A stretch of 64,000 bases of DNA from positions 2,356,001-2,420,000 of the forward strand of contig CAUYUJ010000001.1 in assembly GCA_963575745.1 (NCBI GenBank), read 5' to 3'. Shown piece after piece: positions 31,504-60,748 of the stretch. Every line of letters starts with the position of its first letter. The stretch's first letter is position 1. Source of the DNA: Prorocentrum cordatum (taxonomy: Eukaryota). The notes beneath the pieces are model-generated. The model saw only the letters and a program-made list of their open reading frames with translations, was not told where the DNA came from and ran no database searches. The position numbers and the translations under genes are program-made.

Positions 31504-31596
31504 CCGGCCTGGGGGGGAACGAGACCGGGCCCTCCTCGGAGGCGGAAGCTGCGGGAACTGCTCCTGCTCAGGGGGCTCCTCTTCCTTAGCCTGTAC

Positions 31597-33174: not shown

Positions 33175-34942
33175 CGGTCATCACAGCCTTGGTGAACTCC
33201 TCCGCGCAGCTTCCGCGCGCAGCCGTGCAAACCTCAGGGTTCGCCAACACCCTCGTGGTGTCCTGGAGGCAGATCGCGTCCTCGCATGCTGTGTTCGACT
33301 TCGTTGCCTTCACGGGTGGCTGGCTCCAGATTGTCGATTGCGCGTGGTCCATTACCATGGCTGCGCGTCCCCTTGCAGCTTGCCACTGCATCACCTCGTC
33401 CGTGAACGAGAGCAACATGCGGTACTCGGTCCGCTCTCGGCGTTGCCGGCGCACTCGCATAGGCCTTCGCTGGTCGACCCTCTGCAGTCGACTCCATGCC
33501 GTAGGAGGCGGGGACGAAGCCACGAAGTCTGGGTCAACTGCAACCAGGCACGCCCGTGCCTCGTTCCTGCCCTGGACCGTCAGGAGGTCAAACTCTGGCG
33601 CTGTGATGGGCTGGTGGGCGTCCCATCCCATGTTCGCCGCCAGGATCGTGAGCTGGCAAGCCCATGCGAAGATCTCCACGATCCTCCAGGGCCCCGGTCG
33701 CCGCCGGGTCTCCCTCTGAAAAGGTAGTACACGTTCCTCTTGGTAGTGCTTGAGGGCGTCCTGCTCCTGCCGATCAGCCCGAAGCTTCCTGTTCGCCATT
33801 TCCTCGGTCATCAGAACCTCCAGCTCCTTCAGGTTGCTCCGGACATGCCTGCGAGCACCTTTCGCCATGAAAACCTCGTTGTCCGCGTTCTCCATGAAAA
33901 CCTCCTCGTCACTCGATGCCGTCTCCGCGGACTCTGGGTCGCTGGTGTGATAGTGGGATGTACTCAGCTCTGAATCGCCTGCGTCCTGGCCATCGTTGCT
34001 ATCAGAATCGTGCGTGTCCTCCTCCTCGGCGGTCTCAGCGACGCTGCGCTCATCCTTCTCCTCGTGGCTCGCAGTTCCGCTGAACATCTCGTCGGCGAGC
34101 TCGTCCTGCCCCTCTGACTGTCCGACGGGGAAGGCACTCGCGACCGGTGCCCGGGAATCCAGCAATGACACGCACGGATGCCCGGACGCAGCCGGGACCA
34201 ACGGCTTGGTCACACCGTTCGCCGTGAAAGTACCGTTCCTGAAGCTGATTGCTGCGTCCCACTCTGCCATCTCATCAGGACCGATGAGACCTGGCACCTC
34301 GGCATCGACCTCGGAGATCACAACCTCGCCCTGCGTGCCATTGATGCCATCTGTGTAGCACCACGCACGCTCTGTCAAGAGCGGCGCGCCTGGGCCGAAC
34401 TTGAAGTACTCGCGCTGGTTGATGCTGTGGTACGGCACGCCCATGGCATCCAAAGTCTTCTGCAGCTCGACGTGCCACGGACGTCCACCGACAGCCCGCT
34501 TGCAGCCCGTGTCAATCATAGCCAGCCCCGCGGGCAAGACAACAAGCGTGACGGACTGCTCGTCTATCACCTTGCGGGGGCACTCCTCTCGGGTAGTGAC
34601 CATGTGGGTCGCAGATCCCCCTTTTGCTGCCCAAGGGTCCGCCCCCTTTGCTGCCCAGGGGTCCGCGCCCTTTGCTGCTCCAGGGTCCGCGCGCTGCAGT
34701 GAGTCCTCCTCGTCCGCCTTGGGCTTCTCCAACGTGTAATGGATCACCGACTTCAACGAACACTTCTTGCACTTCGCGAAGATCGCGGTGCCGTTTGACT
34801 GCCGCTTCAGCTCGTCCGCCGGATGAGAACACGCAGCCTGCTGCTGCATGAGTTCTGGGTCGAACTTCGCCTTCGGACATGGGACCGGCCTCTCGCCGTC
34901 GCATCTGCTGCTTCTCCAGGTCGCTCTGCGTGGCACCGGCAC
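33175..34942 (-). CDS. pol: Copia A aspartic protease + degenerate C5-methyltransferase-like domain (pol fragment)
   Basis: AMIDTGC and PGLIG (protease); IVEIFAW, FDLLT, PDFVASSPPPTAWSRLQ and MDHAQSTIW (motif I/IV/VI-like, ~33175-33692). Confidence 0.8.
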
Positions 34943-36509
34943 TCATGACGTAGCTCCGTCCAGAGGTAGTGACTACGCGCGGGGCTCCAGATGCGGCTGG
35001 GGATGCCGTCGCAGCGGCAGGCGCGCCTGAGCTCGCGGCTCCTGGAGGCGCTGGAAGATGAGCACGTCGTCGAACTCCCTCCATGTTCTTCCACACGCTT
35101 CCGACCCCCTGCTGCTCAGGAGATGTAGGCAGTGCACGCTCTGGCAGAGGTGCCTGCTCACGTCGCTTCTGCAGGCCATCGTAGACCTCGCCTGGGTTTA
35201 ATCGGGCATGCATCTCCGACTCCTGCTTCTCTATCAGCGCGAGGCGGTCCAGCAACTCAGCTTTGTCACGCTGCGAGACCTCCAGTCGTTTCTTCTCCAC
35301 GCTCTTCCTCACGTCCTCGGAGGCTCCTGCCATGACCCAGTCCTCGTCCTTAGGGGCGGCGGCAGCCTCCCCGGTCGGAGCGGCAGACGTTAGTCCTGGC
35401 GCAGCTCCGTCTGGGGTGTTCCCTGGAGGTTCTCCCGGAACGTTCGATCCTTTAGTCTTCGATGCCCCTTTCGCCGACGCCGCCGCTGCGGCATCCACCA
35501 CGAATGCAGGATAGGCCCTCGCAGGGCCACTGGCTGGAGAGAAGTCCGGCTTCTCGCAGCGGCGCGTGTAGAGGTTGAGGCGCGCGATGCGGTCGTTCTT
35601 CGCGATGAAGTGGATGGTTGCCGGCGGCGTCAGGTAATCCCTAAAGATGTCCTGACGCGGATACCAGCTGCAGAAGATCTCATCCATCTCCTCCGGCGTG
35701 AACGGCAGCTCCTTATCCTCGCGCCGCTGATCGTTATCGTCCTCGCTGGCCTCATCCTCCTCGCTGGCCTCGTCCTCCTTCTTCACCTCGGCCTCCTTCT
35801 TCACTTCCCTGCTGCTTCTTGCCCTCTTCCTCTCTATCTTCTCTTCTTTACTGCTCCTCGCCTTCTTCTTCTTCTCTTTCCTCTCTTCCTTCTCTTCCTT
35901 CTCACCGCGGCCTTCCGGTGTGCTCCGCTTCTCTTCCTTCTCACCGCGGCCATCCGGTGCACTCCGCGACCTCGAACGCGATGAGGCCCCCGCCTCGGGC
36001 GGAGGAGGGGCGCGATGCTCACGGAGAACAGCTCCCCGATCGCGGTGGCGGTCGTCACGACGATCTCGATGATGATCTTCACGATGCTTGGTGTCACGAA
36101 TCCCGCCTTCGCCGCGCCGATCGTCGCGGTGCTTGGTATCGCGATTTCCGCCCATCACGATCTTGAACATAGTTGCCGTGATCTCGTCGAGATCCACCTC
36201 AGCCGCCGTGCAAGGCTTCGACGTGGTCAGCTGCAGCCGCATGGGCCGACCCTGGACGAAGTCGAGAGCCTCGAAGCGGCCTTGCTTGAAGAAGATGGGC
36301 TTCTTGTTCGTCACACGCTCCACGATGTGATGGACCGTGGCAAGGTCAGGAAACTCCAACTCCACGCTGTGCCCCTTTGGGTTGGGGGTTGGCCAGAATG
36401 CGATGGCAACGCACGCATGCATCCTCGTCCTCCTGATCCTCCCCGCGCCTGGCAAGGGCGCGCGCGCGTTCGTCACTGCCCTGTGCGGGCCCGGGGCCAT
36501 CGTCGGCAT
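34943..36509 (-). CDS. Copia A gag-PR intervening region of unknown function (charged, low complexity)
   Basis: Long ORF inside the element between the gag zinc knuckle and the protease; no motif recognised. Confidence 0.55.
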
Positions 36510-38097
36510 CCCGGCGTAGACTTGGCGCAGGCATGCTCTTGGGTCGAGGATTCATGACGATCCGCCCTGGAGCATCGGCTCGGCCCTCCACCAGATGCCT
36601 CTGGGCAGGCACCGACTGGGGAGCGCGGCGCCATGGGGCGCGGCCACGACGCTCCTCGGCACTGCCTGCCATGCCAACCCAGTGGATGACCGGTCCATGC
36701 GCCTGCCTTGGAGCCGGCGGCTCCGCAGAGCTCCGCTGGTTGGGCGACGCTGGCTGGCCACTCTTAGGCCCGGTCTTGTTGTGCGGCTCGCGCTCGCCAC
36801 TCTTCACCTTGGGGCACTCCGGGTCGCCGCGCCAGTGGCTGGGCTGATCGCAGTCAGCACACCGGCTGTTAGCCTTGCGCTGGTCCGTCGGCTTGCGACC
36901 AGCCTGGAAGGAGCCGCTGACGTTGATCTTCTTGGGGTCCCGCTGCCGAGGGGCAACGAATCCGCGCTTCTGACGCTGTGCTGCCGTCTTCTGCTTGGCC
37001 CTCCAACTGGCCAAGAACGCCTCTTGGAGATCCTCCGTCGCCTCGTACTCCTCGTCATCAGGCCCGTCGTTGTCCGACGCCAGCTCCTCTTCGACCTCGG
37101 CGCCGTCCTCGAAGATGATCCCCTCGCCAGCTCCGGGGTCTCCATCGTCCTGGTCATCTGCTTCATCTTCGTCGTGCTGCGCCTCCTCCAGGTCGCCGTC
37201 GTGGTCATCGTAGTCTTCACCGTTCTCCACCTCGTGCACATGCTGGCCATGGCGTCCTCGAAGCACGTATGGCCTGCGAGCCATGGGAGGGTGCGGATAG
37301 CGACCGCCCGAGCTCCCGGAGGAGCGCCCGTGATCACGCTGCGCCGCCACAAACGGCGAGCGGCGAGGGAGCACCGAGCGCTTCTCGGTGTCGTGCACCT
37401 TCGAGTAGGCTGCCTTCAGCACGACCTCCATCCGCTTCGAGTCGTAGATGCCGCCGCAATTGAAGAGCACCTGCGCTTGCTCCTTTTGCGACAGCCCAGC
37501 GCCACGGAGCATCTTGCTCGCCAGCGCGCGATCGCTGATCGCTGACGTGGGGTCCTCGAGCTGCAACTCCATGCGCTTCTTCCGAAGGTACGTCGTCCAA
37601 TCCATGATGGGCTGCCCTGCTCGACGGTGTGCTCGCTCCCACTCCTGATGCACCTGGTCCAGGCGCTCGTGGTCCATCTTCTCGAAGGCGTCATCGTAGA
37701 TAGCGAAGATAGTCTCGAGCGTGTCCTCGCGTCGAAGGTCCGACGCGTCAAGCACCTCGACGAGCTTCTTGGCCCGACCTGTCACCTGGCCGTAGATGAT
37801 CAGGCCCAGCTCCACGTCAGAAAGCTGGTTGAGATTGCGGATGACCTCAACTGCCTTGCGCCACTCCCGGTACTTCTTGGTACTCGTACCGACGGCACCG
37901 TCGAACTCCGGGAGCTTCACCTGCGACAGCAGTAGACGTGTGCGTCTGGGACCGCTGTCGCCGCCGCGATCCCGATGCAAGGCCAAGAGCTCCCTCTGGG
38001 TCTCAGCCATCACGCGCAGGACCGCGTGCAGGTCTGGGGGGCCTGCGCCGACGGAGGACGCAGCCTCCGCATCTGAGCCGTCGTGGCTGGCAGCCAT
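36510..38097 (-). CDS. gag: Copia A Gag with zinc knuckle
   Basis: ATG 67 nt after the PBS; LPEFDG...YREWR, QVTGRA and CADCDQPSHWRGDPEC. Confidence 0.88.
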
Positions 38098-38163
38098 GGC
38101 GGCCCGCGCGGGTGGTCACAGCCACCGAAGCAGAGCACGCAGTGCGTCCGCTGGAGCTTACAA

Positions 38164-39940: not shown

Positions 39941-40249
39941 GGCGACCGACGCAGAAATGCGTTCTACATCGCCTCGTCTCAGGGGGCAGGCGGGAGGCCA
40001 GCGGGCCGAGCGCAGGTCTACTCTTTGGTCGGGCATGTCCCCCTACAGGCGGACTCTGGACGAACAATCAAAAATACACCAAAAATGCTCAAGCAATGCC
40101 CCAAAATACCATCAAAATCGTCCCCCGACTACTTTTGAAACTATTTTTGAATGTTCCTCCCAATCTTCGGCTTCGGTCCCAGTCCCGACCCTGGCCCCAG
40201 GCCTGGCCCCGACTCTGGACCCCGGTCCAGGCTCTCGGTCCCAGTCCCG

Positions 40250-40854
40250 GCCTCCTCCTCCTCCTCCTCCTCCTCCTCCTCCTCCTCCTCCTTCTCTTCA
40301 TCCTCCTCCTCCTCCATCCTCCTCCTTCCTCCTCCTCCTCCTCCTCCTCCTCCTCCTCCTCCTCCTCCTCCCGCTCCCCCTCCTCCTTTCCTCATTCTCC
40401 TCTTCCTCCTCCTCCTCCTCCTCCTCCTCCCGCTCCTCCTCCTCCTCCTCCTCCTCCTCCTCCCCTCCTCCTCCTCCTCCTCCTCCTCCTCCTCCTCCTC
40501 CCCCTGAAACGCCGCCGCCGCCGCCGCCTCCTCCTCCTCGTCCTCCTCCTCCACCTTTCCTCCTCCTCCTCCTCCACCTCCTCATCCTCCTCCTCCTCCT
40601 ACTCCCTTCCTCCTCCTCCTCCTCCTCCTCCTCCTCCTCCCCCTCCCGCTCGCCCTCCTGCTCCTGCTCCTCCTCCTCCTCCTCCTCCTCCCGCTCCTCC
40701 TCCTCCTCCTCCTCCCTCCTCCTCCTCCTCCTCCTCCCTCCTCCTCCTCCCTCCTCCTCCCCTCCCGCTCCCCCTCGTTCTTCTTCCCGCCGCCGCCGCC
40801 GCCTCCTCCGCCTCCTCCGCCTCCGCCTCCTCCTCCTCCTCCTCCTCCTCCTCC
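40250..40854. repeat. (CCT)n microsatellite, left flank of Copia B
   Basis: Seen directly. Confidence 0.95.
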
Positions 40855-41029
40855 TGCAAAACCCCGAGGAGGGTTCTGCGCGGGAGCCCAGTAACAGTGA
40901 TGATGGTCGGTCACCTTTATACTCCCGCACGGCGAAGCGAGTCTCGGTGGTTTCAGCCGTTAAACACTTGAGCCAAAGGTAACAGGGTCACTATTCCTCC
41001 CCAGTCACCTGAACGCTTGCATGTTAACA
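40855..41029 (-). repeat. 3' LTR of Copia B
   Basis: Direct repeat of 51432-51606. Confidence 0.97.
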
Positions 41030-41038
41030 CCCCCCCTC
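41030..41038 (-). promoter_or_regulatory. Polypurine tract GAGGGGGGG
   Basis: Directly abuts the 3' LTR on the - strand. Confidence 0.85.
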
Positions 41039-41435
41039 GGACGCTAGTCCGTACGGGCTGACGGGGAGGTGTCTTCAAACATAAAAACAAGTTAAACTAC
41101 GCAACATGCTGCACGCAAATCGTCATATCGTTGAATTCGAAAGGTCTCGTGACAGCGTTTACGAGCACCACGTATCTCACACATGTAACATGAGCTCGAG
41201 TAAACGCTCTTGCAGTCACAAGTTTAAACGGAGCATCTAAAGTTTACACGGCAGGCTAGCATTTGGATGATTTTGATTGCTTTCGCTGTTTATTCGCCAA
41301 TACCTGCGGTAACTACAAAAGATGCACATGCACGCAGGCTCAGCTCAACAAGCTACCGCCACACGATTGTTAAGCCGAGTTAGAGGGGAGATGAGGGAGA
41401 GCGTAAACTACAGCATGCTGGTCACCTGCCACCTT

Positions 41436-43907
41436 TTACGAGCGGCGCGGGCGCCTCACCGACGGGGCCCGTGCGCCCCTCGACCTCGGTAGCCCGCGAT
41501 GCCCCACACTGGCCGCTGTGTAGGACGACACCCTGTTAAGGGCCTGCATCGGGCTGTAATAGTCGGTGTCCAGGTACGCGTTAATGCGCTCCTCGTCGTC
41601 GAGCCAGCACCCCTCGTCAAAGCTCTTGATGGACCCGTCAACAATGTTGTGGTAGGTGCCGATGGCCCTCCAGTAACTGGCGTGGGGGGCCTTCAACAGA
41701 GGCCCACCGCCTGGATTGTTACGGAGGTGCTCCTCGACCGCAGCGCCGGTAAACGGGTTCACAGTCCAGGTCGGATCGGTAAGCCAGTTGGGGAAGTCGT
41801 CGCACGGTAACCAGCCAAACCAGCAAAGCTTCTCACGATGATCGCTTTTACGCTCGGTGATATGATCAGCAGGCCAATTGTCACGGTAAAGTGCCCTCAT
41901 GGGTCCCTGATCGTTAAGAGCGACATCTAAGATGGTCTGGTGCCAGTAGACTGGAGGCCTGTTGATGCTGCCCTTTAACTCCTCGGTTCTCCTGACCTCG
42001 AGGTCCTCGATGAAGTAGTTGCGGTAATGCACCTGGAACCCGTTCATGTAACGGCAGTAGAGCTTGGCAAGGTCAGGCGTCGCAAACCGAATTACGGTAA
42101 CTCCAGTCGAGATGTAACCGTGCGGCCCGCGGGTGTCTTCCACCAGGTGCTTAACAGAGATCACGGTGGGGTTGCCGTGGGGCAGCATCCCTGCCCACGT
42201 TAAGAGGAGACCGTTAAGCTGCTTCTCGTTCATCTCCGGCACCTTGTTGACGTACACCTGCGTGTCCGGGCAACTGTGGAGCTCAAACCACGATGGGTGA
42301 ATATCGTCAACGTGGAGTGGTGGCACGTACTCGTCGTCAAACAGGGGCTGTACGTGCCCAACTGCGTCAACCCATTCATCATGCTTGGTCAACTCTTTGT
42401 CCGTCAACTGAGATCTCCAGCTGCTTGGGCCCTTCAACACGGCATAGCCGATGAAACCGTAAGCGTGTTGGCCGTAGATGTCAACGAATACTTCATCGTA
42501 ATCGTTAAGCTCCCGCCCCGTGTTGCCCTGAATAGACCGACCGCCAGGGGTCGTTAAACCCGTCTTCGCCACATGCCCGACGAAGTTGCCCTCAAACCTG
42601 CGCCAGTTGTCGCGCGTCTTCATCGTTAATGCGACCACTTCCCTGGGGTCAGGTTCCACCTTGTAGTTAACGTCGTAGTCGTCGCTCCTGTCGTTCAGCA
42701 TGGGCATGTGACCGTTGACGTGGTACAGCGGGCGGTACACGGCCCTGGCGACGTTCCGAGAGTATCCCGCAAGCTGGTCATTCGTGCGGTTAACGACTTG
42801 AGGCTGCGGTGGCGGGATGCGCTGGACCGGTGACCTCTTGGGCTCCGGAGGCGGGGGCTTCATGCCGCTAACGCTGCTCGATGCTCTTGACTCGCCGAGC
42901 CCCGGAGGAGGTGGCTTGGCCGGCCTCGCGTTCACAACAGGGGTAGGACCTTTTGGTGCTTCGTCACGTTGACTGCTCTTCGCACGATCTTCATCCATCT
43001 TCATGCCGATCTGCAGTAACTCTTCCAACTCCCGTTTACGCTCATGCATGGCCTTTGGCGCTTTCTTGTAAACAGGTTGTGGCTCCGTTGACTGCGGGAT
43101 CTTGTTCGGCGACATGGACCGTCGGATCCCTCCGGCTTTGGTGGTTGCGCCGGTAAGGTCCTGAGCCGGGGGAGCTTTCCCTGATGGAGCCACGTTAACC
43201 TGCATCACTGGGGGCGCGCCTGAGGCCATGGACTCGGCTGCCGCGGTGACGGCAACGGGTGGCGCCTTGGCGAGTGCTGCCGTTGGAGGCAGCTCAGGTA
43301 ACGGCGGAGGCACCTGCGGGATGATGGTAACCGAGGAGCTGATCGGGTCATTCAAGAACCTCTGTAAACCCTCAAGCCTCTCGGTAACTCCCACTAACAT
43401 GCGTAGTGCCGCATCCCGTTTGCCCTCGAAGTCCTGCAGAGGCGTGATGTTCTCGGTAAGACGTCTGGCGGTGTTCAAGAGGTAACCAATGTTCTCGTTG
43501 ATGCGCCTGTACTTGGTCGCATTCTCCGCCGTGTTAACCTCCGAGTCGCGATTCTTGATGTTCAGCTCTGTAATCGTCGCCACCAGAGCGTTAACCTCGT
43601 CCTGCGCCCTCTTGAGGTTTTCGTTGACGTCGTCACTGGCGTGGAGCAACGCAGCGTTCTGCCGCGTTAAGTCCTCGATCCTCCGCGCCATGTCATCGGC
43701 GGCCCTCTGCGCCTCGTCAACATGTTTGTCATGGGCCCCGTGAAAGTTAATGGCCATGTTGGTGAGGGTCACGGTAAACGCATGGGCAACGTTGGCGATG
43801 TCGTCAACACGGCGATTGAGGTTCTCACGCGTAACCGGTCCATCCCCAGGCGGGCTCTGGTCAACCACGGAGCCGTTGATCGTGACGTTGACCTGGTGAG
43901 CCGCCAT
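41436..43907 (-). CDS. Copia B ORF3: coiled coil, Pro-rich linker, RRM-like domain; function unknown
   Basis: Uninterrupted ~820 codons between pol and the 3' LTR; QVYVNKVP (RNP2-like) and TGVTVIRFATPDLAKLYCRYMNG (RNP1-like); first ATG at 43907. Confidence 0.85.
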   Translation of the reverse strand: MAAHQVNVTINGSVVDQSPPGDGPVTRENLNRRVDDIANVAHAFTVTLTNMAINFHGAHDKHVDEAQRAADDMARRIEDLTRQNAALLHASDDVNENLKRAQDEVNALVATITELNIKNRDSEVNTAENATKYRRINENIGYLLNTARRLTENITPLQDFEGKRDAALRMLVGVTERLEGLQRFLNDPISSSVTIIPQVPPPLPELPPTAALAKAPPVAVTAAAESMASGAPPVMQVNVAPSGKAPPAQDLTGATTKAGGIRRSMSPNKIPQSTEPQPVYKKAPKAMHERKRELEELLQIGMKMDEDRAKSSQRDEAPKGPTPVVNARPAKPPPPGLGESRASSSVSGMKPPPPEPKRSPVQRIPPPQPQVVNRTNDQLAGYSRNVARAVYRPLYHVNGHMPMLNDRSDDYDVNYKVEPDPREVVALTMKTRDNWRRFEGNFVGHVAKTGLTTPGGRSIQGNTGRELNDYDEVFVDIYGQHAYGFIGYAVLKGPSSWRSQLTDKELTKHDEWVDAVGHVQPLFDDEYVPPLHVDDIHPSWFELHSCPDTQVYVNKVPEMNEKQLNGLLLTWAGMLPHGNPTVISVKHLVEDTRGPHGYISTGVTVIRFATPDLAKLYCRYMNGFQVHYRNYFIEDLEVRRTEELKGSINRPPVYWHQTILDVALNDQGPMRALYRDNWPADHITERKSDHREKLCWFGWLPCDDFPNWLTDPTWTVNPFTGAAVEEHLRNNPGGGPLLKAPHASYWRAIGTYHNIVDGSIKSFDEGCWLDDEERINAYLDTDYYSPMQALNRVSSYTAASVGHRGLPRSRGARAPSVRRPRRS

Positions 43908-43994
43908 GCCTTCGTTCACGCTCAAGAGTAAGAGGTAATGGATGGAGGAGGCTTTAATCGAGACGGCTTGCTTGACAGAAATGAGCTGCGAATG

Positions 43995-46158
43995 TCAACA
44001 TTCGGTAGCCGGCGCAAGATTATGCCGACCTGTTAGTGCACATTGATTCGTGTTTCGTAGGTGTGTGCTCATGCTCTCACGACTGACATACTTGGTTAAT
44101 GCATCTGCTGTGTTCTCATGTGTCCCTACTTTCACAATTCGAAGTACCCCCTCCTTTACCTTCTGCTGCAACCACAGTTGACATACTTCAATGTGTCTCA
44201 CGTTCCCTAGACCTCGTCTGCTCGCAATGGCAATTGCAGCCGTGGCATCACTCTTCAGGGTGATCTCAACTTCCAAGTTAAAATCTCTCAACACGGCCTG
44301 AAGTCCTAGACCAACTGAACCTCCTTTTACGAGTCCATAATATTCTGCTTCCCCTGACGATAACGCAATCACACTTTGAGTTGTGCTCCACGATTTTATA
44401 AGGTGTTTACCCCACATCACTACTCCTCCACTCGTAGACTTCCTAGTTCGCTTACATCCTGCGTAATCCGTGTCAGTCCAAATCGTCAACTCTCGGGGCT
44501 GTTCTTGATACTGATACACATAACTGCTTCTGCTGTGGTACTTCAAATGCTTTCCTAGCTTGACTAGGCCTTTCCAAGAGCCCATGGTTGGCTTTGACAT
44601 GGTTCTAGCAAGTTCCTTCACTGAATACTGTATGTCCGATCTGTCTTGAGCTAAATAATTCGCTCTGGCCGTCAATGCCTGATATCTCTTAGTCATGTTG
44701 GGCGAAAGTTCTACCTCATCTCCCTCTTCAACTGGAATGCGCTCACCTGGTACCTCAGTCCTCACTTTTACTCCTTCAAGCTCAAGCTCTGTGCCTTTGA
44801 TCTGCCTCATATCTCAACCCTTCCTCAGTCCATTCCACTATCCTGTTAAGAATCCTGATCGCTTTCATGTCCTCCTTTCCTGGTCCAAGTCGTCCTCTCA
44901 CTTTTACCTCAAACTCCTCCTGTATTTTATTTTCAAACCAATCGAGATCATGGTCACCCCCTAGTAGCGTAAAGTCATCCCCATGAACCGTTAACCATAA
45001 GGCTCGAATCTCGTGTTTGAACACGCATGCTGACGCAACTCCGCTTTTGAACCCAACTTCGATGGCAAAGTCCATGTAACAGTCTTCCCAGTTGCTTGCT
45101 GCGTCTCTTGTTCCGTACATTGACTTCAGTAGTTTTCCGCGCATGCCTGGTTCATAATCCTCGTCCGGTAATCTGATAAATATGTCTTTCTTTGCAGGGG
45201 CGTAAAAGTAAGCTCGTCTAATGTCAATGAATGCCAGCTTTAATCCTTTCTCGCGCTCGCCATTCGTGAATCCCACTCCTTCGGTAACTGCCATTGAGAA
45301 AAGCAGTTTCTGTGCTTCCAGCGGAGGCGTGGCCGCAAATATATTCTTTTCCTTGGAATTGTATTTAACTTGCTGGGCCACTAGCCTTGACCTGTGGTCT
45401 GGGCTTAACTCATCTCCTTTGTTAATGTCTATCCACCTGGTTCCGATGGGTGCCTTCCCCGTAACTTGCCAACGCACTTCCTCTTTCACTTTCTCGTAAA
45501 CTCTGTGTTTTCTGAATTGTTCTATTTCTTCTTGGCGCGCTTTCACAATTAGTTTAGGATCGAGTTCGTTTCCAGTAACATCGTCCCAGGCTTGAGTTAT
45601 CTCTCCATTTTCCTTGTGAACAACGTTGATCGCATTCATGGGGGGAGGTTTAACTGTGCCAACCTTTTCACACGCTGCACAGGTGCTGGGCGTCTTGAGC
45701 CAGCCCCCATGTTCACATGCACTGCGCTTCCACTTGTGTGGAGCAACCTCGCCAACAGCCTCATACGTAAAGGTGGTAGAAGTGTTAACCGGTCCCTTCT
45801 TGAACGTTCTCCTTCTCTCTCTACCTATGATTTCGTTCACGGGCCTGTCCTCGATAACTTTCCCTGTGTCCAAGTCAACGGTAAGTCTCCTAATGCATGA
45901 ACTCCATTGTGGTCCACTTGGTCCTAGCAACATCAATCTTTGGGTTCCATAATCTTTTCTCGTCCAGGTTAACTGGTGCTTGTGCTTTCTATCTTGGTCC
46001 GCATGTTCACCTGCCCAGTTGGTTTCGCTTATCTGCATTTCACTTTGCTCCTCTTCGTCAACTTCCATGTTTGTTGTTTCCTCTTCTTTAAACGTGCCCC
46101 CTTGGCGTCCGTCAACCTTCATTTGTTGCACAAGCCCCCTCAATATCGCTCGGCACAA
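43995..46158 (-). CDS. pol: Copia B RT + RNase H (one frameshift near 44790)
   Basis: WDDVTG, IGTRWIDINKG, RSRLVAQ, AATPPLEA, IDIRRAYF, SMYGTRDA, VHGDD; RNase H TDTDYAG, LSSGEAEYYG, SDATAA, NTADALTK. Confidence 0.95.
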
Positions 46159-46780
46159 TATGTCTGGGTAAACTTATGATCGGTGAGTTCTTCCGCCACC
46201 AGTTAACGCCATGTGTCGATGTTGCCCTTTGCATCTCAACTTAACTCGCGACCTATGGCCGGGCTGTTTGTCATGAACTTGGTCGGTTTCTTAATGAACA
46301 TCTCTTCACCTTTGACCATCTGCTTCAAGTCGTAACATCACAAATCTCCATTGTAAACTTTAACATCTTTGTTTCTGAGCAACCGTTGCACTACTGAAGT
46401 GCTCCAACTGGTCGCCCCCGCGGGGTGTTCAAATAGAAAGTATAAACCATTTCGCCGTTGAGTTTCGCAAAGCTCCATCGCGAACGTCAAATGCTTGATC
46501 CCGTAACCCAACATTTGTTTTACTCGGTCAGCGCCTAATCTTTTTAAAGTTGAACGTCTGGAGTCTGCTGAAAGCTGCGCACATGGGGCTCACCACTAGT
46601 AACGGGGCTGCTTTGGATTTGACTATCTTTTTTGCTTTCGCTCGCATGGCTGGCACATTAAAGTCCCATGGGTTACCATGTTGATCGCGCGATGTTAAGT
46701 CCATCGCTAATCCCGGTATCAGTCCCATTTTCTCTGCCATGCCTGTAACTCTCACCGGCGAATATGCCTCAGTCACGTGC
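46140..46780 (-). pseudogene. C5 cytosine DNA-methyltransferase-like domain embedded in Copia B pol (disrupted)
   Basis: VTEAYSP (I), WDF, VVSPMCAAFS (IV, with Cys), YFLFEHPAGATSW (VI), KKPTKFMTNS (VIII-like), YPDILCRAIL (X); 2 frameshifts and 2 stops by manual translation. Confidence 0.75.
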
Positions 46781-48846
46781 GCCTGAGTCTCATGTTGACT
46801 TGCGCCATAAAGCTTGGTGGCTCTCCTTGCCTCGTTCAATTGGTGCACGACGTTCAACTCCCCGCCTGTCAACCACTCAACCAGCTCAGAGTCAAATCCC
46901 ATCATGTTGAGTCCCAATCTGATGTCGTTTACTTCTGACATTTCTTCATCTTGTTCCGGATTAAGTTGGCGATGTTGAGTTGCCTGTTGATCTTCTTCGT
47001 CATGGTCACCATCTGCTTTTCGTTTAATGGGTTCACTTGGGGGGTCTTTCATTTCTTCATCTTCTATTTCGAACTCGGTCCACCCGGTCCAGTAACCGTT
47101 AAAGGGGTTTCCCATGGCCCATGTTTGGTCATCTCCCTCTTTGCCATACCAAGCGTCTTCGTGTTCACGTATTTCACCGCTGTTAATCAGGATGGCATGA
47201 GTAAATCTCCTGGGTTTAAGTTTGTCCCAATCTACCGGACATCCACCATTGGTGGGAAAGGCTAACTCTTTTCTTGGTCGCCGGTGTTGACATATAACTT
47301 TGTTTCCTTTTACTACCCACTCATCCTTCGCATCCTCAACCTTGGCGCTCGGCGGAGGTGGCACGTTGATTCTCAGTCTTTTCGCTTGACTGTCTGATTC
47401 CTGATTTTGACTTTCCGACGCGCGGCCTTTACTTTCGAGTCTCAGTTGGGCCGATGCTAGCCTTGCCTGGATATTTGGGCTCTCTTGTTTCTTTAGCCAC
47501 TCGATAACTCGAGCCCTGCAATCGGCGTTATGCGGTTTGTGCTCTTTGTCTCCTCTAACAAGACATTTACACCCGTAACATCCCGGTGTCGGTCCCATTT
47601 TTAAATATTCGTGCTTCTTTACTGCTATTCCTCGCGCAATCAGCGGCTTCGTCTCAGGTGCCGTTAACTCTTGCTCTGGCAAGTCCATGGGCACCATGAT
47701 TCTAGACTGTAATTCCATTCCTGCCGTACTGGGGTCAGGCTGCCAAGGTGGCCCCTTCATCTCGGTAATCTCGTCGCTGTTCCATCTTTCCGCTTCACTT
47801 CCTTTCCGTTTAAACTCGCGTGCCTTGATTGCTCCATTTGGTGTCCCAATAATTAGCTCCTGACTCTTCTCGTTTATTCCCAAAAACACTCCACTTTCCC
47901 ATCTCATTTCAAGTTTTTCGCGGCCCTTGTGTGCAGGCGTCTTTAAGTACATGACACATTCGCCGGATTCAGGAATTTGCTTGTTAAACTTTCTCCCCCT
48001 GCATCTCTCATGGGCTGTCTTTCCATCCGTGTCTATCGTGAACTTGTTAATCAGAGAAGACGCATAGCTCACCAGCCATGGTATTATCGCGCGACTCTCA
48101 CTAAACTCGGTCTTGTAATTGGCATCCAAGGCGCTCTTTAATGTTCTAACTTGCCCTTGCACCGTTCTAACTGCTCTCTCGATTTCACCGTTGGCCTTTG
48201 AGTCGCCTACAGGACTGACTTCAACACCCATGTCGAGGTCACGCGACGCTTTAATTCTGTTGGCCAGCGCCGTGATTGCCGCTTCTCCATCGCTTTTGAG
48301 TATAACCTTCTTATATCCGGTAAAGCTGATCATGTCACATCCCACCTTTACTGAGTATGAGTCCACTCCCTTTTTCAGCAACACTCGGCTCCACGTTAAT
48401 TTGGCCTCCCTGCAATGCATGACTAGAACTGGGTTGCCATTGCTGGCACTTTCGCCGTCTTCCTTTTTCCCTTTAAGCCACATGTAGTCCATTGAAATCA
48501 CTGGTACGTTTCCGTTCCTTTCCCTTTTGCGTCTCCGGTGATTGCGCCTGCGTGCTTTTCCTCTAACACAATGTGGGCACCAGCTTCGGTAAGGTAAATG
48601 CGTTGTGTTGTGCGTCTCAACCCCCTCCCTTGAGGGCCTCATGTCACAGTAAACTTTCTTCGGTAACTCCGCTTCATCGCTCACACATACATCTTCCACA
48701 TCACTCAACTCACTCTCGCTGCCCCCACTTTCACTCCCTTCACCTTCTTCGGCGTTAAAGACATTTAAGTTTTCGCTTGGTCTTACGGGTAATGAGGGGC
48801 TTAGTAGAACAGATCCGCCTCCAGGGTTCCCGGCCGCGGAAAACCC
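46781..48846 (-). CDS. pol: Copia B integrase region (start of pol, entered by -1 frameshift)
   Basis: HNTTHLPYRSWCPHC; SMDY / KSDGE / SKANGEIERAV; TPGCYGC...H...CR; the frame is open back to the slippery site at 48846. Confidence 0.93.
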
Positions 48847-51410
48847 TCAGCTGCGTTCACTTCGCTCCTGGGATTGACGGCCTCCGCTGGCCCCCTCGGC
48901 ACTGTGCTGTTGAACTGAAACGTGCCATTCTTCTCGTGGATAGTTGTGCATTTACCCGTGGCCTTATTCATGATGTGACTCAGGGACCTCCCGTTAAGAT
49001 CCTTGTCAAACACAACTCTGTTTCCAGCGTTTACCATTTCCCTGACGGATCCCAGAACTTTGTTGACTTCCGCTACCTGAATCGGCATGCTGACTGCGTT
49101 CCCATGTTCATTCCTGCCGGTGACCACTCGCTGCCCGTAATTCTTTATCGTCGTTCCATTTGCTGCGCTGTAATGTCTTCCCTGCTTTGACGCATCCGTT
49201 TGTTTAATGGGGAAATATGTGCCTACTTTGGGGGGTCCCACCGTGTTGTACGCCCCAGAGTCCACGGTAACCGCAATTGTCTCATGCGTTGTACTCTGAG
49301 GTGGCACCGCGTTAATTTCTGGATCACAGTCTCGCATCTCGATCAGCCCAATCTCTCTGCATTTCTCCAGCCAACTTTTTTCCTGTTTCACACTTTTACT
49401 TATCCTCTGGTCCCATTGATTCACATGATTGCAGTCCCCGTTGCATTGATGCTCATGGTAAACTCTTTTCAGGCTCATTGCGGCCTTACGCGCCATTTTC
49501 TTTCTGGCGTGTGAGGTCAGAGCCCATTGCCCGTTAACCTCCTCAGTTGTGAGTTGGTCTAGTGGCACGTTCACTGCATCCCTCATTTCAACGCTGAGAA
49601 CATGTTGCGGTTGGCCAAATGAGGTGGTTTGTTCACTTTCCGCGTTCACTGTCGGTCTCTCTTGCTCAACTTCGTTGGCGGTCTTCTTGGGGCCCGGGCA
49701 GTTAACGGCGATGTGCCCTTTGGCACCGCACTTGTAACACTCACGCTCGCTATGGGGGGTACATTTTCCTTGGCTTCCATAACTTCCACCCCGCGAGCCA
49801 CTCCCTTTACCACCTTGTTTGCCTCCAATCTTACCTTTCATGTAGGACCCGTAGGTGGCCCGGTAACCCTTGCCTTTTCCGCCTTTGCCACCTTTACCTC
49901 CTTTGGTGAACTGTTTAGGTCTTGTGCAATTTCTAGCTAAATGACCCATGCCTCCACAATTGTAACATTTGGGGCTTGTGCCTTTACCTTTGCTTTTGTT
50001 TACGGCGTCGACTTCTTCGTGATCTCCACTGTTACTCTCATTGGCCCAGGGCCCGTAACTCCAAGATCCATCTTCTGGCCACCAGTTTCCGTCCTCGTCA
50101 ACCCATCCTGTCTGGTCCCAGATATTTTCGGACCCTTGACTCGTCTCGTTGATATTCCCAATGTCCATCGCATCTTTATTCTTGGTGTCTGAGTCGAGTT
50201 TCTTTTTACGCGCCCAGTCTTCACACTTAGAGTATAGCTTCTGGAATGTGTCAATGTTAAGCGCGTCGGGCGTTCGCCAGCACGCCTGCTGCCACTCGTC
50301 GAACCAATCGTTCGCATGCACCATTATTGCCCTGAGTGCGGTGATTCTAAGGGGGAGAGGCAGTGAGTAATCTTTACCATGCTTTTCAAGATTTTCTGCC
50401 AATGCACTCCACTCCTCAAGTCGGGTGACAGTATCAGCAATCTTCTTGGGCGGCTCAGGGTTCATGGCGTGTGTCATCTTTGATGACAGAGTCGCTCCGG
50501 TAACAGCCGAGTACCACTTGTAAACCTTTTGCCAAGCCATAATTCCATCACCATCCATAAATCCCTTTAATTTTCCTCTTGCTTCTGCACCTTCGAGCTT
50601 CTCGTTAAGGATGTACCATAAGTCTTCCTCCATTTGAGTTTTGTCTCCCTCGGTAAACTCGTGCTCTCCTTTGTTGTCATCCTCTGCTTGTTTAGCTGGA
50701 TTCGCCTTCAAGTAATCGCTTGCTGTTAATCGGCCGTTCATTATGCGTATGATGTCATCATCGTCCTCCTCCGGTACAACTCCGTCGAGTGTCTCCAACT
50801 TCTTGTTCAGCATTTTCAGCGCCGGTCGGTAACTCGGTTTTACTTGGGCCAGCGCGTTTAAGAACTTGTCGTTCCAGTCTCTGAACTTTGCTCTTTCTCC
50901 ACTGAAGTTCTTTAACGCCTGTAATGCCTTATATTCGCTTATCGGTTTACCGCTCCCGTGCTTGCTTCCACTTCTTCCTTTGATTGCTTCCGAAAGCTGA
51001 CCAATTTTTTCAATCAACTTATCTTGTACCTCGCTGTTGGTCTCCAACTCGGTGACTCTTTCCACCAGCCTGCGAGCATCCCTTTCAAGTGCAGCGTTTC
51101 TCTTCGTAATCGCTAACAACATGCTGTTGGTCTTATGAGCACTCTGTAACATTTGGAATGCCTCGGCGTTCGATACTTCCCTTCGGTCCTGTGCCACTCG
51201 CTCGTTGATGAACGTTGCAAATCCATAGTGGTTTGCAAGTAACGCTGTCTGAACGTAACTGAAGTCTCCGTTCAGGTATGCTTGCTCGCACAGGTCATTG
51301 AAGCGGTTAGGGTCCATGTTGACCCATGCGTCTCTGTCTGCCGGCACATTGAGGTTAACCGGCGGGTCGCCCTGCCCAGGCCTAGCTGCAGCGGCCGCCG
51401 CCGCCGCCAT
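48801..51410 (-). CDS. gag: Copia B Gag-protease (two CCHC knuckles, aspartic protease)
   Basis: CYNCGGMGHLARNC, CYKCGAKGHIAVNC, DAMDIG and VTVDSGA; intact 869 aa. Confidence 0.95.
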   Translation of the reverse strand: MAAAAAAAARPGQGDPPVNLNVPADRDAWVNMDPNRFNDLCEQAYLNGDFSYVQTALLANHYGFATFINERVAQDRREVSNAEAFQMLQSAHKTNSMLLAITKRNAALERDARRLVERVTELETNSEVQDKLIEKIGQLSEAIKGRSGSKHGSGKPISEYKALQALKNFSGERAKFRDWNDKFLNALAQVKPSYRPALKMLNKKLETLDGVVPEEDDDDIIRIMNGRLTASDYLKANPAKQAEDDNKGEHEFTEGDKTQMEEDLWYILNEKLEGAEARGKLKGFMDGDGIMAWQKVYKWYSAVTGATLSSKMTHAMNPEPPKKIADTVTRLEEWSALAENLEKHGKDYSLPLPLRITALRAIMVHANDWFDEWQQACWRTPDALNIDTFQKLYSKCEDWARKKKLDSDTKNKDAMDIGNINETSQGSENIWDQTGWVDEDGNWWPEDGSWSYGPWANESNSGDHEEVDAVNKSKGKGTSPKCYNCGGMGHLARNCTRPKQFTKGGKGGKGGKGKGYRATYGSYMKGKIGGKQGGKGSGSRGGSYGSQGKCTPHSERECYKCGAKGHIAVNCPGPKKTANEVEQERPTVNAESEQTTSFGQPQHVLSVEMRDAVNVPLDQLTTEEVNGQWALTSHARKKMARKAAMSLKRVYHEHQCNGDCNHVNQWDQRISKSVKQEKSWLEKCREIGLIEMRDCDPEINAVPPQSTTHETIAVTVDSGAYNTVGPPKVGTYFPIKQTDASKQGRHYSAANGTTIKNYGQRVVTGRNEHGNAVSMPIQVAEVNKVLGSVREMVNAGNRVVFDKDLNGRSLSHIMNKATGKCTTIHEKNGTFQFNSTVPRGPAEAVNPRSEVNAAEGFPRPGTLEADLFY
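48814..48846 (-). promoter_or_regulatory. -1 ribosomal frameshift signal: G GGU UUU + stem-loop
   Basis: In-frame X XXY YYZ heptamer at 48846-48840; the -1 frame has TGA immediately 5' and is open into integrase; hairpin CCGC-GG-CCGGG-AAC-CCTGG-AG-GCGG follows. Confidence 0.8.
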
Positions 51411-51419
51411 GGCAACCGC

Positions 51420-51431
51420 GCTCCGCTACCA
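51420..51431 (-). promoter_or_regulatory. Primer-binding site TGGTAGCGGAGC
   Basis: Abuts the 5' LTR; identical to the Copia A PBS. Confidence 0.88.
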
Positions 51432-51606
51432 TGCAAAACCCCGAGGAGGGTTCTGCACGGGAGCCCAGTAACAGTGATGATGATCGGTCACCTTTATACT
51501 CCCGCACGGCGAAGCGAGTCTCGGTGGCTTCAGCCGTTAAACACTTGAGCCAAAGGTAACAGGGTCACTATTCCTCCCCAGTCACCTGAACGCTTGCATG
51601 TTAACA
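51432..51606 (-). repeat. 5' LTR of Copia B
   Basis: Direct repeat of 40855-41029. Confidence 0.97.
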
Positions 51607-51950
51607 CCTCCTCCTTTTCCTCCTCCTCCTCCCCCTCCCGCTCCCCCTCGTTCTTCTTCCCGCCGCCGCCTCCTCCGCCTCCTCCGCCTCCTCCTCCTCC
51701 TCCCCTCCTCCTCCCCTCTCCTCCTCCTCCTCCTTCCTCCTCCTCCTCCTCCTCCTCCTCCTCCTCCTCCCGCTCCCCCTCCTGCTCCTCCTCTTCCTCC
51801 TCTTCCTCCTCCTCCTCCTCGTTCTTCTTTTTTTTCTTATTATTTTTCTTCTTATTCTTCTCCTTCTCCTTCTCCTTCTTCTTCTTCTTCTCATTCTTCT
51901 CCTCCTCCTCCTCCTCCTCCGCCTCCTCCTCCTCCCTCCTCCTCCTCCTC

Positions 51951-51985
<35 letters not shown>

Positions 51986-52195
51986 CCCCCGCTCCTCCTC
52001 CTCCTCCTCCTCCTTCTCCTCTCCTCCTCCTCCTTTTCCTCCTCCTTCTCCCCCTCCTCTTCCTCCTCCTCCCCTCCTCCTCCTCCTCCTCCCTCCCTCC
52101 CTCCTCCCCTCCTCCTCCTCCTCCTCCTCCTCCTCCTCCTCCTCCTCCTCATCAAGATCATGATCATCATGATCATCATGATCATGATCATTGTC

Positions 52196-52227
<32 letters not shown>

Positions 52228-52504
52228 GTTGATGATCATTATCACTACCACCACCCCGATCATCATCATGATCATCATGATCATCATGATGATGATGATC
52301 ATCATCATCATCATCACCGTCATCATCAACATCATCATCATCAGCATGACCCTCATCATACTCATCATCATCATCGTCATCATCGTCAACACCACCATCA
52401 TCATCATAATCTCATCGTCGTCATCATCATCACCATAATCATGATCATCTTCATCATCATCCCATTATTCCTTGCTCCTCCTCCTCCCCCTCTTCCTCCG
52501 AACC

Positions 52505-52537
<33 letters not shown>

Positions 52538-52948
52538 GTCATCATCTTCAGCATCATCATCAACACCACCACCACCGTCATCATCGTCATCATCAGCAGC
52601 AGCATTAGCATCAGCATCAGCATCATCGTCGTCATCATCATGATCATGATCATGATCATCATCATCAGAAGCAGCAGCAGCAGCATCATCATCATCATCC
52701 TCATCCTCGTCCTCGTACTCGTCCTCATCCTCGTTCTCATCCTCCTTCTCCCTCCTCCCTCCTCATCCTGCTCTTCCTGCTGCTCCTCCTCCTCCTCCGC
52801 GTCCTCCTCCTCCTCCTCCGCCTCCTCCCCATCCTCTCCGTCCTCCCTCCTCCCTCCTCCCTCCTCACTCCTCCCCCCTCCCTTCCCCTCCTCCCGCCTC
52901 CCGCCTCCCCTCCCGTTAGTCGTAAGTCGTCCGTGGTCGGCGTCGAGG

Positions 52949-59770: not shown

Positions 59771-60748
59771 AAATCCCACCAGCCCTCTGGGCGTAGGTGG
59801 TCTAGAGCAGATCCTCTTCCACCCCTCCCTCTTCCCCCTTGGGGAGGGGTTTACCCCTCCCCCTACCCCCTCCCCTGGACCTGGACGGGGGGGGCCGCGG
59901 GTAGTTAGAGCGTCCCAGATGGCCCAAGACGGCTCCAAGAGCGCCTCAGAGAACCCAAGATGAGCTCCAAGATGGCTCAAGATAGCGCAAGATCGCTCGA
60001 GATGGCTCCTAAGATGGTTCCAAGAAGCCCAAAGACGGCCCCAAGATAACTCCAAGTGGCCAAACAGCTCCCCAAGGAGGCCCCGAAGAGGCCAAAATCG
60101 TCCCAAAACCTAAGGAAAATCAATGATTTTTGCTTTCTCGCCTTTCGCTTCCGATGGCCATCCGAGGCCTGGAGATGGCTCCAAGATGGCCCAAGAGGGC
60201 CCCAAGAGAGCCCCAAAAGAGCCCCAAGACGGCCCCAAGAGCGCCCAAGAGCACTCCAAGAGCGTTCCAAGAGGGGTCCAAGAGGCGATTTTAGGGGCTT
60301 CCGAGGGGGGACGCTAATTAAACCCCCCCTCTTGTTTGATCGACTCCCTCCAAGATGGCCCCAAAAGCGCCCCGAAGGCTCCCCAGAGCGCCTCAAGAGG
60401 GTCCCAAGAGGCGCCCAAGATGCCCCAAGGCGCCCAAAAAGCCCTCCAAGAGGCCCTCAAAAGACCCCCAAGAAGCTCCTTCCCCTCCTCCTCCTCCTCC
60501 TCCGATTCTTCCTCCTTCTCCGTCCTCCTCCTCCTCCTCCTCCTCCTCCTCTTCCCCCTCCTCCTCCTCCTCCTCCTCCGACGACGACGACGACGACGAC
60601 TCCTCTTCCATCCTCCCCCTCTCGGGGTCTGTGACAGCTTCCCCCGCCCTTTGTTATTCTGCATGCTCCCCGACTTCCCTGATCACCTCAACTCCCCTGA
60701 GCATCGTTTCTGGATGGGCTGGTGGGGATACGCGAAGCGTCGACAATT
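59771..60748 (+). mobile_element. 978-bp non-autonomous insertion with 4-bp TSD (CGTC), asymmetric inverted repeats and GAA hairpin
   Basis: CGTC at 59767-59770 and 60749-60752; CCCACCAGCCC/GGGCTGGTGGG; ACGC-GAA-GCGT at 60730-60740; removal restores the ORF2 frame. Confidence 0.88.

Follow-up and report, generated by a model that had tools for sequence, protein, structure and literature searches.

Accessory genes are rare in long terminal repeat (LTR) retrotransposons, and most of them are either env-like or of unknown fold. Env-like extra open reading frames (ORFs) are known from Copia/Sirevirus and Gypsy/Athila elements. In retroviruses, accessory RNA-handling proteins of the Rev/Rex type are made from spliced subgenomic mRNA, and Khazina and Weichenrieder are said to have reported in 2009 that the ORF1 proteins of non-LTR elements carry noncanonical RNA recognition motifs (RRMs). 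In dinoflagellates, every mRNA is trans-spliced in the nucleus, and retroposition has shaped the genomes. The subject here is an ORF, termed ORFX, in a 64,000-nucleotide stretch of the dinoflagellate Prorocentrum cordatum (GenBank assembly GCA_963575745.1, contig CAUYUJ010000001.1, positions 2,356,001 to 2,420,000 of the forward strand), which is called the window and whose first letter is position 1. ORFX is the third gene of a Copia-type LTR lineage, represented in the window by a complete element (element B), and is neither env nor a pol domain. It is regarded as a new family of accessory genes within an element type already known.

Copia-type elements have been described from Symbiodinium microadriaticum as SmTCL1-4, which are flanked by LTRs, carry the integrase (INT) before the reverse transcriptase (RT), and contain RNase H; SmTCL3 is ~10 kb long (PMC5776459) and thus similar in size to the 10.75-kb element B. 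RT, INT, RNase H, and LTRs are the only SmTCL parts named in PMC5776459, in which an extra ORF is not mentioned. In 12 of its 18 supplementary files, none of five ORFX peptide words occurs, and the sequence files may be nucleotide-only. Copia elements are also mentioned in the accessible parts of a 2024 review (PMC11453091) and of a paper on Oxyrrhis expressed sequence tags (PMC3942190), and these parts mention no extra ORF. Full-text literature searches returned no description of an extra ORF with an RRM or a coiled coil from Copia or dinoflagellate elements.

ORFX is encoded on the minus strand of the window, in the sense orientation of its carrier element, and reads from an ATG at 43907 to a TAA at 41436-41438 (41436..43907, 823 codons). 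From stop to stop the frame takes up 41436..43994 (minus strand) and 852 residues. The program-made ORF listing gives 41436..43925 (minus strand) and 829 residues when the frame is begun at a TTG, with the first ATG at 43907. An intact extra ORF of ~820 residues at the env position had been claimed by the original prediction, and this holds: the 823-residue frame stands between the pol stop codon (TGA, 43995..43997, minus strand) and the polypurine tract (PPT, 41030-41038). The end of pol, the 87-nt spacer from the pol stop to the ATG (43908..43994, minus strand), and ORFX all share one frame. A 3′ untranslated region (UTR) of 41039..41435 (minus strand; GC content 0.48 over 41035-41435) connects the gene to the PPT. 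No second copy of ORFX is present in the window, where tblastn returns ORFX alone.

Relatives were collected with a HMMER search of 1.84 billion representatives and a word-indexed search. HMMER finds 75 relatives at E ≤ 1e-3, 39 at E ≤ 1e-10, and 13 at E ≤ 1e-30. The family reaches down to ~25-30% identity, and most of its members are short fragments. Three full-length relatives of 841, 863, and 854 residues share 56-59% identity with ORFX overall and 64-67% over the C-terminal region. More distantly, an 876-residue relative (32% identity) shows a helical N-terminus, a linker, and a globular domain in the same order, and a 475-residue relative is found at 29% identity. One relative is located on a contig of 11,786 nt, which is about the size of an element. 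Searches in other collections yielded no confirmed relatives: 130 protein-pattern matches in JGI metagenome contigs, 61 in GTDB genome contigs, and 31 in IMG/VR were all left unconfirmed, eight loci found in JGI metagenome contigs with a degenerate DNA motif proved unrelated (best tblastn E 0.045, over 19 residues), and the phage records searched contain no ORFX relative.

The intactness of these relatives can be compared with neutral expectation. In a simulation of 300 neutrally evolving ORFX copies, with the transition share taken from sibling-contig differences, 7 of 300 copies stayed open at 90% amino acid identity and none of 300 at 80%, 66%, or 58%, the last with a mean of 13.3 stops. 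Since intact relatives exist at 56-59% identity, where no simulated copy remained open, selection for coding is indicated, with the caveat that a protein database contains just what stayed open. Sibling DNA contigs point in the same direction. In four of four DNA runs, each of the 30 bins of the element interior, ORFX included, is covered by contigs that are 85-100% alike, and among the indels listed only one falls inside ORFX, an in-frame skip of 42 nt in the linker (43167-43210, sibling contigs of two runs). Single-base insertions among the same listed indels fall in the 3′ UTR (41381, 41409, and 41413) and in the spacer (43951). In this cover and among the listed indels, the ORF is neither absent nor disrupted in sibling copies. 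Neutral evolution, which the original prediction had put up as a contrary outcome, is disfavored by the intact diverged relatives and by the simulation; the base differences add less, as five of the eight best-supported ones listed in ORFX are synonymous in a small sample (the best 40 of 2,135 for the whole stretch). ORFX is very probably a real gene of this element lineage that is kept by selection.

Two sibling contigs concern the borders of the gene. A 493-nt contig of run X4 (88% alike) extends from the ORFX interior through the spacer to 44011 and holds too few pol-side letters to bridge the pol stop. In run X1, a contig of depth 6.3 with 35 letters on its shorter side joins 41300 to 44152. 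The 2,851 nt that it skips comprise 135 nt of the 3′ UTR, all of ORFX and the spacer, and the final 52 codons of pol. Because the conserved C-terminus of pol is removed as well, this join is read as a rare deletion form or a product of assembly and not as the ancestral form.

The encoded protein is predicted to be soluble and to consist of four parts, namely an N-terminal helix, a basic proline-rich linker, a globular domain of ~375 residues, and an arginine-rich tail. The full-length AlphaFold2 model was built from a 35-row alignment and has a mean predicted local distance difference test (pLDDT) score of 60.5. Its N-terminal part (residues 27-186, 43350..43829, minus strand) is helical, with helices at residues 27-154 (128 residues) and 163-186 and block pLDDT values of 57-88, and heptad-like windows lie within residues 71-212. 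The linker (residues 187-414, 42666..43349, minus strand) is proline-rich, basic, and mostly disordered by composition and by AlphaFold2: residues 201-385 contain 18.9% proline with an isoelectric point (pI) of 10.1, residues 191-375 are mostly modeled as disordered, and short helices appear at residues 286-312 and 376-390. The KAPP/KPPPP repeats noted earlier are present here, with KAPP at residues 214 and 244 and KPPPP at residues 331 and 350. The C-terminal globular domain (residues 415-790, 41538..42665, minus strand) is delimited by AlphaFold2, in which order extends over ~415-790, by composition, and by conserved motifs; residues 386-800 are aromatic-rich (11.8% Phe, Trp, and Tyr). The disordered arginine-rich tail (residues 794-823, 41439..41528, minus strand; composition and AlphaFold2) closes the protein. 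Its last 23 residues have a pI of 12.0 with eight Lys and Arg and no Asp or Glu, and the tail is kept in relatives.

The globular domain appears to be built around an RRM-type fold at residues 545-669 (41901..42275, minus strand), as judged by secondary structure and fold searches. For the C-terminal 464 residues, a model built from a 67-row alignment reaches a mean pLDDT of 69.7 and a predicted template modeling score of 0.74. DSSP on the models gives the order β1 (550-554), α1 (561-569), β2 (582-591), β3 (598-608), α2 (611-621), and β4 (625-631). The top rows of a Foldseek search against the PDB are RRMs, led by 1x5o (E 3.7e-3, probability 1.00), and a renewed comparison with Foldseek's 997 best chains gives the RRM picture again. 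With VIA-align, 223 of 48,161 representative chains score Z ≥ 5, the best 50 of which are all RRM-type by title. The best match is the RRM of Rna15 (2x1a_A, Z 7.6, rmsd (root-mean-square deviation) 2.2, 82 of 87 residues), followed by 9dwu_C (Z 7.5, rmsd 1.8, 79 of 80 residues); the matches extend over entire RRM targets (rmsd 1.7-2.5) and are uniform in kind. In BFVD, which gave no match at E ≤ 0.001, the top rows are RRM proteins of giant viruses. Weaker leads agree: Pfam RRM_1 matches 2 of 13 family members (best E 0.023), the family profile finds the hnRNP M RRM in the PDB (E 0.046), and the nearest ESM cluster is RRM_1 (score 0.85). On ORFX itself, Pfam reports no family at E ≤ 0.01 and only weak coiled-coil-like rows up to E 10, and the ORFX family escapes Pfam detection. 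The flanking parts of the globular domain (~460-545 and 670-790) showed no match in searches with the whole C-terminal model, in which the segments were not searched singly.

For the RNA-contacting motifs of an RRM, the consensus is an aromatic residue of ribonucleoprotein motif 2 (RNP2) on β1 and aromatic residues at positions 3 and 5 of RNP1 on β3. The tyrosine of the RNP2 motif (VYV) is conserved, and the glycine and Arg-Phe of RNP1 (G..RF) are invariant in 13 sequences. The predicted RRM is called noncanonical because RNP1 positions that are usually aromatic are valines. The RNP2/RNP1-like motifs that had been seen within a larger aromatic-rich domain are thereby placed in a modeled β-α-β-β-α-β unit at ~545-669 that matches solved RRMs.

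The N-terminal helix is predicted to pair in parallel, which was modeled for a dimer. In a two-copy model of residues 20-190, the chains run parallel and in register, with an interface score (interaction prediction score from aligned errors, ipSAE) of 0.48 compared to 0.00 for the best of three controls. The in-register contacts (150-150, 143-143, and 108-108) and their spacing of 3-4 indicate a parallel coiled coil. Contacts agree to at least 93% between runs, the partner pLDDT is at least 79, and the family alignment was not used. The score mark was passed by 21 of 30 solved same-chain pairs and by none of 23 single chains in a microbial benchmark; for eukaryotes, it was passed by 17 of 29 pairs and by none of 30 single chains, with just 1 of 7 pairs among those without an older solved relative. 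The N-terminal coiled coil of the original prediction is in keeping with both the AlphaFold2 helix at 27-154 and this parallel pairing.

In its layout, the modeled protein resembles ORF1p of the long interspersed nuclear element LINE-1. Both are nonenzymatic proteins encoded by retroelements in which an oligomerizing coiled coil is followed by a noncanonical RRM within a larger C-terminal half, and both contain basic regions. The ORF1p order of coiled coil, RRM, and C-terminal domain is found in the ORFX model as a helix at 27-154, an RRM at 545-669, and order up to ~790. Differences are seen in genomic place, in that ORFX stands 3′ of pol in an LTR (Copia) element and is not the first ORF of a non-LTR element, and in the carrier, which also has a normal gag with zinc knuckles. 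In addition, the linker of ORFX is ~230 residues long and proline-rich, and ORFX was modeled as a dimer only. Pfam Transposase_22, together with the trimerization and RRM models, matches neither ORFX nor 13 aligned relatives, and no LINE-1 ORF1p chain is among the best rows of the fold searches. ORFX thus resembles LINE-1 ORF1p in predicted layout and is not a member of its family. A self-pairing helix combined with an RRM parallels the RNA-packaging protein of LINE-1 despite the normal gag of the element.

Because a coiled coil, a basic linker, an RRM, and an arginine-rich tail are combined in one protein, ORFX is read as an element-encoded, oligomeric, RNA-binding accessory protein that would act on the RNA of the element. 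As a whole, this reading by analogy is given about an even chance. The interpretation in the original prediction, an accessory protein such as an RNA chaperone or anti-silencing factor, is supported in part, namely in the extra gene being intact at the env position, in its non-env character, in the coiled coil, and in the RRM-type fold. A set of observations weighs against it. The gag of element B already has two zinc knuckles, which leaves no obvious need for a further RNA chaperone. The RRM assignment is without a Foldseek match in the PDB at E ≤ 0.001 and without a Pfam RRM match for the ORFX protein itself even at E up to 10; no chain reaches Z ≥ 8 with VIA-align, and lower values, here obtained on a predicted model, are in a range common for unrelated arrangements. 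Coiled coils are abundant among solved structures, and the passing score of the two-copy model may reflect likeness to many of these. Relatives beyond the siblings of 85-100% are presumed to be Copia-borne, and none of the contigs with ORFX relatives (4430, 4359, and 11786 nt) had a counterpart of its length among the contigs of the 120 top-ranking pol C-terminus relatives. The agreement of relatives on the start codon, described below, is partly built in, since gene callers choose the first ATG. Finally, positions 3 and 5 of RNP1 are valines in ORFX, and RRMs that lack the RNP1 aromatics sometimes bind proteins rather than RNA.

The last point suggests another function, in which the dimer would be a protein-binding adaptor or counter-defense factor that tethers or blocks a host silencing, splicing, or chromatin factor and is not an RNA chaperone. 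The aliphatic RNP1 positions are shared by ORFX and its close relatives, and a long disordered proline-rich linker would be typical of docking regions. Against this stand the conserved RNP2 tyrosine, the aromatic residue that the distant relatives P0035 and P0060 retain at RNP1 position 5 (Phe in both), and the basic linker and arginine-rich tail, which favor contact with nucleic acid. An adaptor function is therefore considered unlikely.

ORFX is read as a separate cistron, for which several features speak together: a common pol end, a common ORFX start, the lack of fusions, the lack of structure at the stop, and a frame-breaking insertion. Seven of eight close pol relatives stop within two residues of the pol stop in the window, four of them at the exact residue, and the eighth is cut short. 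Seven of nine relatives with an N-terminus begin within a few residues of the window ATG. Of the other two, one begins 14 residues later, and one (P0027) has a 19-residue upstream extension. No pol-ORFX fusion is found among proteins of 1442-4115 residues, which is weak evidence. The same features bear on the idea that ORFX is made as a Pol-ORFX fusion by readthrough of the single TGA. The shared frame, 29 spacer codons without a further stop, and the C after the UGA, which is presumably a leaky context in eukaryotes, would allow this. Readthrough is nonetheless very unlikely, given that ORFX has its own ATG at a place common to seven of nine relatives, that in one sibling contig the frames of pol and ORFX are uncoupled by the 1-nt insertion at 43951, and that the RNA downstream of the pol stop is not unusually structured (z = +0.34, with 126 of 200 shuffled sequences folding as well or better).

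The spacer harbors a candidate splice acceptor. A pyrimidine tract at 43924-43951 (minus strand) is followed by a G and by an AG at 43921-43922, 13 nt before the ATG. The tract is unique in element B, whose sense strand is purine-rich (pyrimidine fraction 0.418): only 1 of 10,721 28-nt windows of this strand reaches at least 24 pyrimidines. Translated in frame, the tract is identical to the upstream extension of P0027 at ~11 of 19 positions, compared to 54% identity in the adjacent coding part of P0027, and the tract therefore seems conserved. The extension itself comprises 19 hydrophobic residues that look like a signal peptide and is probably the translated pyrimidine tract, since such a tract translates as a Leu/Phe/Ser-rich sequence.

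The extension and the position between pol and the PPT are what could make ORFX appear as an env-like or secreted protein, that is, a degenerate gene of the envelope type, comparable to those of plant Copia elements of the Sirevirus type. The original prediction had already set ORFX apart from typical env genes, and this is borne out in the present copy, in which the highest Kyte-Doolittle mean over 19 residues is 1.06 and the N-terminus is not hydrophobic. Furthermore, the extension is absent in seven of nine relatives and would encode Leu, Phe, and Ser whether or not it is coding, the globular domain is predicted to be RRM-based, and no viral structural protein is matched at E ≤ 0.001 in BFVD. 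An env-like gene is close to refuted for this copy. With the env-like ORFs of Copia/Sirevirus and Gypsy/Athila elements, ORFX shares the location between the end of pol and the PPT or 3′ LTR; it differs in lacking a signal peptide and a membrane segment, in its RRM-based architecture, and in its host, which is a dinoflagellate and not a plant.

The codon make-up separates ORFX from the remainder of its carrier. Its GC content at third codon positions (GC3) is 0.72 (0.75 in both ordered domains), compared to 0.56 in gag, 0.50 in INT, 0.49 in RT, and 0.45 in the pol C-terminus. Among other ORFs of the window, GC3 is 0.74-0.76 for the neighboring Copia element in the codon comparison and 0.46-0.61 for the LINE-like ORFs. 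As joined parts share their mutational history, this break points to the acquisition of ORFX from another, GC3-rich source at some time, and the sharp change in codon usage would make ORFX a clear-cut case of a gene acquired by a Copia element. Judged from the depth of the family and the cover by siblings, the capture is neither recent nor one-off; the family reaches down to ~25-30% identity, which answers the concern about a recent one-off capture. The LINE-like ORFs of the window were tried as a source and rejected (hhalign probability 0.1 for both LINE-like elements), and ORFX is without likeness to them. A viral origin was likewise set aside, as the fold search of BFVD gave no match at E ≤ 0.001.

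An acquired gene may also be a mere passenger. A cellular coiled-coil/RRM gene could have been copied into the Copia lineage, for example by template switching on a trans-spliced mRNA, and be carried along without service to the element, the diverged relatives then representing a cellular family. The contrast between the GC3 of ORFX and that of gag-pol (0.45-0.56) with GC-poor stretches on either side would suit such an origin, as would the fact that the Copia setting of the diverged relatives is presumed and not seen. Immediately downstream of the pol stop, a weak, gapped resemblance to the spliced leader would fit the capture of a trans-spliced mRNA and is a hint at best: it scores 17, and 63 of 8,528 windows score at least 16, so that it is not significant alone. 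Other observations are harder to reconcile with a passenger. The ORFX bins are all covered together with gag-pol in the four runs by contigs of 85-100%, and its frame is spared by the listed indels. The spacer of P0027 is as conserved as the coding N-terminus, which is unusual for the 5′ UTR of a host gene. The 75 cluster representatives are mostly short fragments of short contigs, which would better fit a multicopy element gene than a gene present in few copies in a huge genome, and the 11,786-nt contig of one relative is about as long as an element. Capture is, moreover, compatible with later service to the element. A passenger without function for the element is thus rather unlikely.

Under the favored reading of an RNA-binding accessory protein, an ancestor of the lineage would have acquired ORFX from the GC3-rich source, and selection would have kept it while the lineage multiplied. 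A subgenomic ORFX mRNA would arise by splicing at the tract-AG site, and its own AUG would be translated. The splicing would most simply be spliced-leader trans-splicing, as expected in a dinoflagellate, or otherwise cis-splicing as in the env mRNA of retroviruses. The length and role of the dinoflagellate spliced leader are given in the part of PMC6050394 that is accessible. The tract-AG site thereby offers a testable expression mechanism for ORFX. The oligomer could then bind the RNA of its own element and contribute to ribonucleoprotein assembly, chaperoning, export, or protection, a role that would parallel that of LINE-1 ORF1p with the same arrangement of coiled coil, RRM, and C-terminal domain. 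If ORFX serves the element in this manner, unrelated retroelements have invented an RNA-handling protein convergently, and a handle on retroelement replication in dinoflagellates would be at hand.

A second analogy can be drawn to proteins of the Rev/Rex type, with which ORFX shares a gene position 3′ of pol, a candidate splice acceptor a short distance upstream, a segment rich in arginine, and predicted self-association. ORFX is ~7 times larger and predicted to be RRM-based, and the likeness is one of layout. A more specific proposal combines both analogies: the coiled-coil RRM third gene would be expressed by spliced-leader trans-splicing at the internal acceptor, as the response of the element to a host that trans-splices all of its mRNAs. 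Its product, an oligomeric RNA handler, would protect or export the genomic RNA that is left unspliced, or package it into particles, and a protist LTR retrotransposon would have a protein convergent with LINE-1 ORF1p or with retroviral Rev. In this specific form, the proposal is speculative and rather improbable.

The carrier, element B, is a complete LTR element of 10,752 bp on the minus strand (51606-40855). It is of the Ty1/Copia type, as it contains LTRs, a primer-binding site (PBS), a PPT, a CCHC gag, RVT_2, and an integrase upstream of the RT. The 5′ LTR (51432..51606, minus strand) and the 3′ LTR (40855..41029, minus strand) are each 175 bp long, are bounded by TG..CA, and differ at 3 of 175 positions (98.3% alike). 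The length of 175 bp was set after the surrounding (GGA)n repeat had made the LTRs appear far longer; this (GGA)n-type simple repeat continues on both sides of the element (40171-40854 and 51607-52400). A 5-bp repeat, GGAGG, is present on both flanks and carries little weight because element B sits in the (GGA)n repeat. The PBS-like sequence TGGTAGCGGAGC is at 51431 (minus strand), after the 5′ LTR, and the PPT GAGGGGGGG (41030..41038, minus strand) precedes the 3′ LTR.

The gag-pol region of element B (43998..51410, minus strand) is divided into pieces in different frames in this copy, all on the minus strand. The gag frame has its first ATG at 51410. The gag-protease piece (to 48804) contains the two CCHC knuckles (Pfam zf-CCHC, E 1.8e-12). 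It is followed by an integrase piece (48846-46531) with a weak SH3_retrovirus match (E 0.0036, below cut-off), an RVT_2 piece (46173-44785; Pfam RVT_2, E 2.8e-12), and a C-terminal pol piece (44813-43998). pol is thus split, the copy having four frame pieces, and ORFX is whole in the same copy. At 44790, sibling contigs contain at least 15 additional letters, and they differ by single bases at 46236 and 46541; close protein relatives of pol run uninterrupted across the break at 44790. The extra letters and the reading of relatives through this point indicate that pol is damaged in this copy and ORFX is not. The gag-protease and integrase frames overlap by 46 nt (48801-48846) with a shift of -1, in agreement with the -1 frameshift assigned to the element earlier. 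Indel variants near this overlap, at 48722 and 48826, are seen in one DNA run. Rfam detected no family at gathering score over 40000-52600.

The original prediction had called the carrier a DNMT-Copia and had set element B apart partly on this ground. The label is not confirmed for a C5 cytosine DNA methyltransferase (DNMT) domain: Pfam DNA_methylase (PF00145) has no match at E up to 10 on the pol pieces tested (46531-48846, 46341-46589, 45700-46173, and 46531-47100), and a PDB sequence search with the putative DNMT region gave no match. As a weak lead, the nearest named ESM cluster for the residues encoded by 46531-47130 is DNA_methylase (0.77), a name carried by 13% of the cluster members. 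The integrase-RT stretch (~46200-46700, minus strand) is frame-broken here, which weakens profile searches. Loose ends of sibling contigs are found at 46237 and 46542, as if the integrase-RT segment varied between copies. In the accessible part of de Mendoza et al. (PMC5890265), DNMTs are described from LINE and DIRS elements of Symbiodinium, along with abundant Copia elements without DNMT.

The window as a whole appears as a nest of retroelements. A second Copia-type element is located at 29101-38115 (minus strand), with matches to RVT_2 (E 1.8e-11) and rve (E 5.5e-7, below cut-off). Its GC3 of 0.67-0.76 is very unlike that of element B, and tblastn finds no ORFX homolog in it. LINE-like ORFs at 21251-25359 (plus strand) give weak matches to Exo_endo_phos, RVT_1, and zf-RVT, all below the Pfam cut-offs.

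Traces of the spliced leader are found in two settings. The relic that had been noted in the LTR is present in both copies of it, as an 11-nt match to the 3′ end of the leader sequence (TTTGGCTCAAG; 51544-51554 and 40967-40977, minus strand), in each case upstream of a TATAAA-like box. A perfect 22-nt copy of the dinoflagellate leader is located at 63502-63481 (minus strand). It stands directly at the 5′ end of a 935-residue ORF (60688-63495, minus strand) with a weak Exo_endo_phos match (E 9.4e-4, below cut-off), which looks like a LINE-like element or a retrocopy from a trans-spliced RNA.

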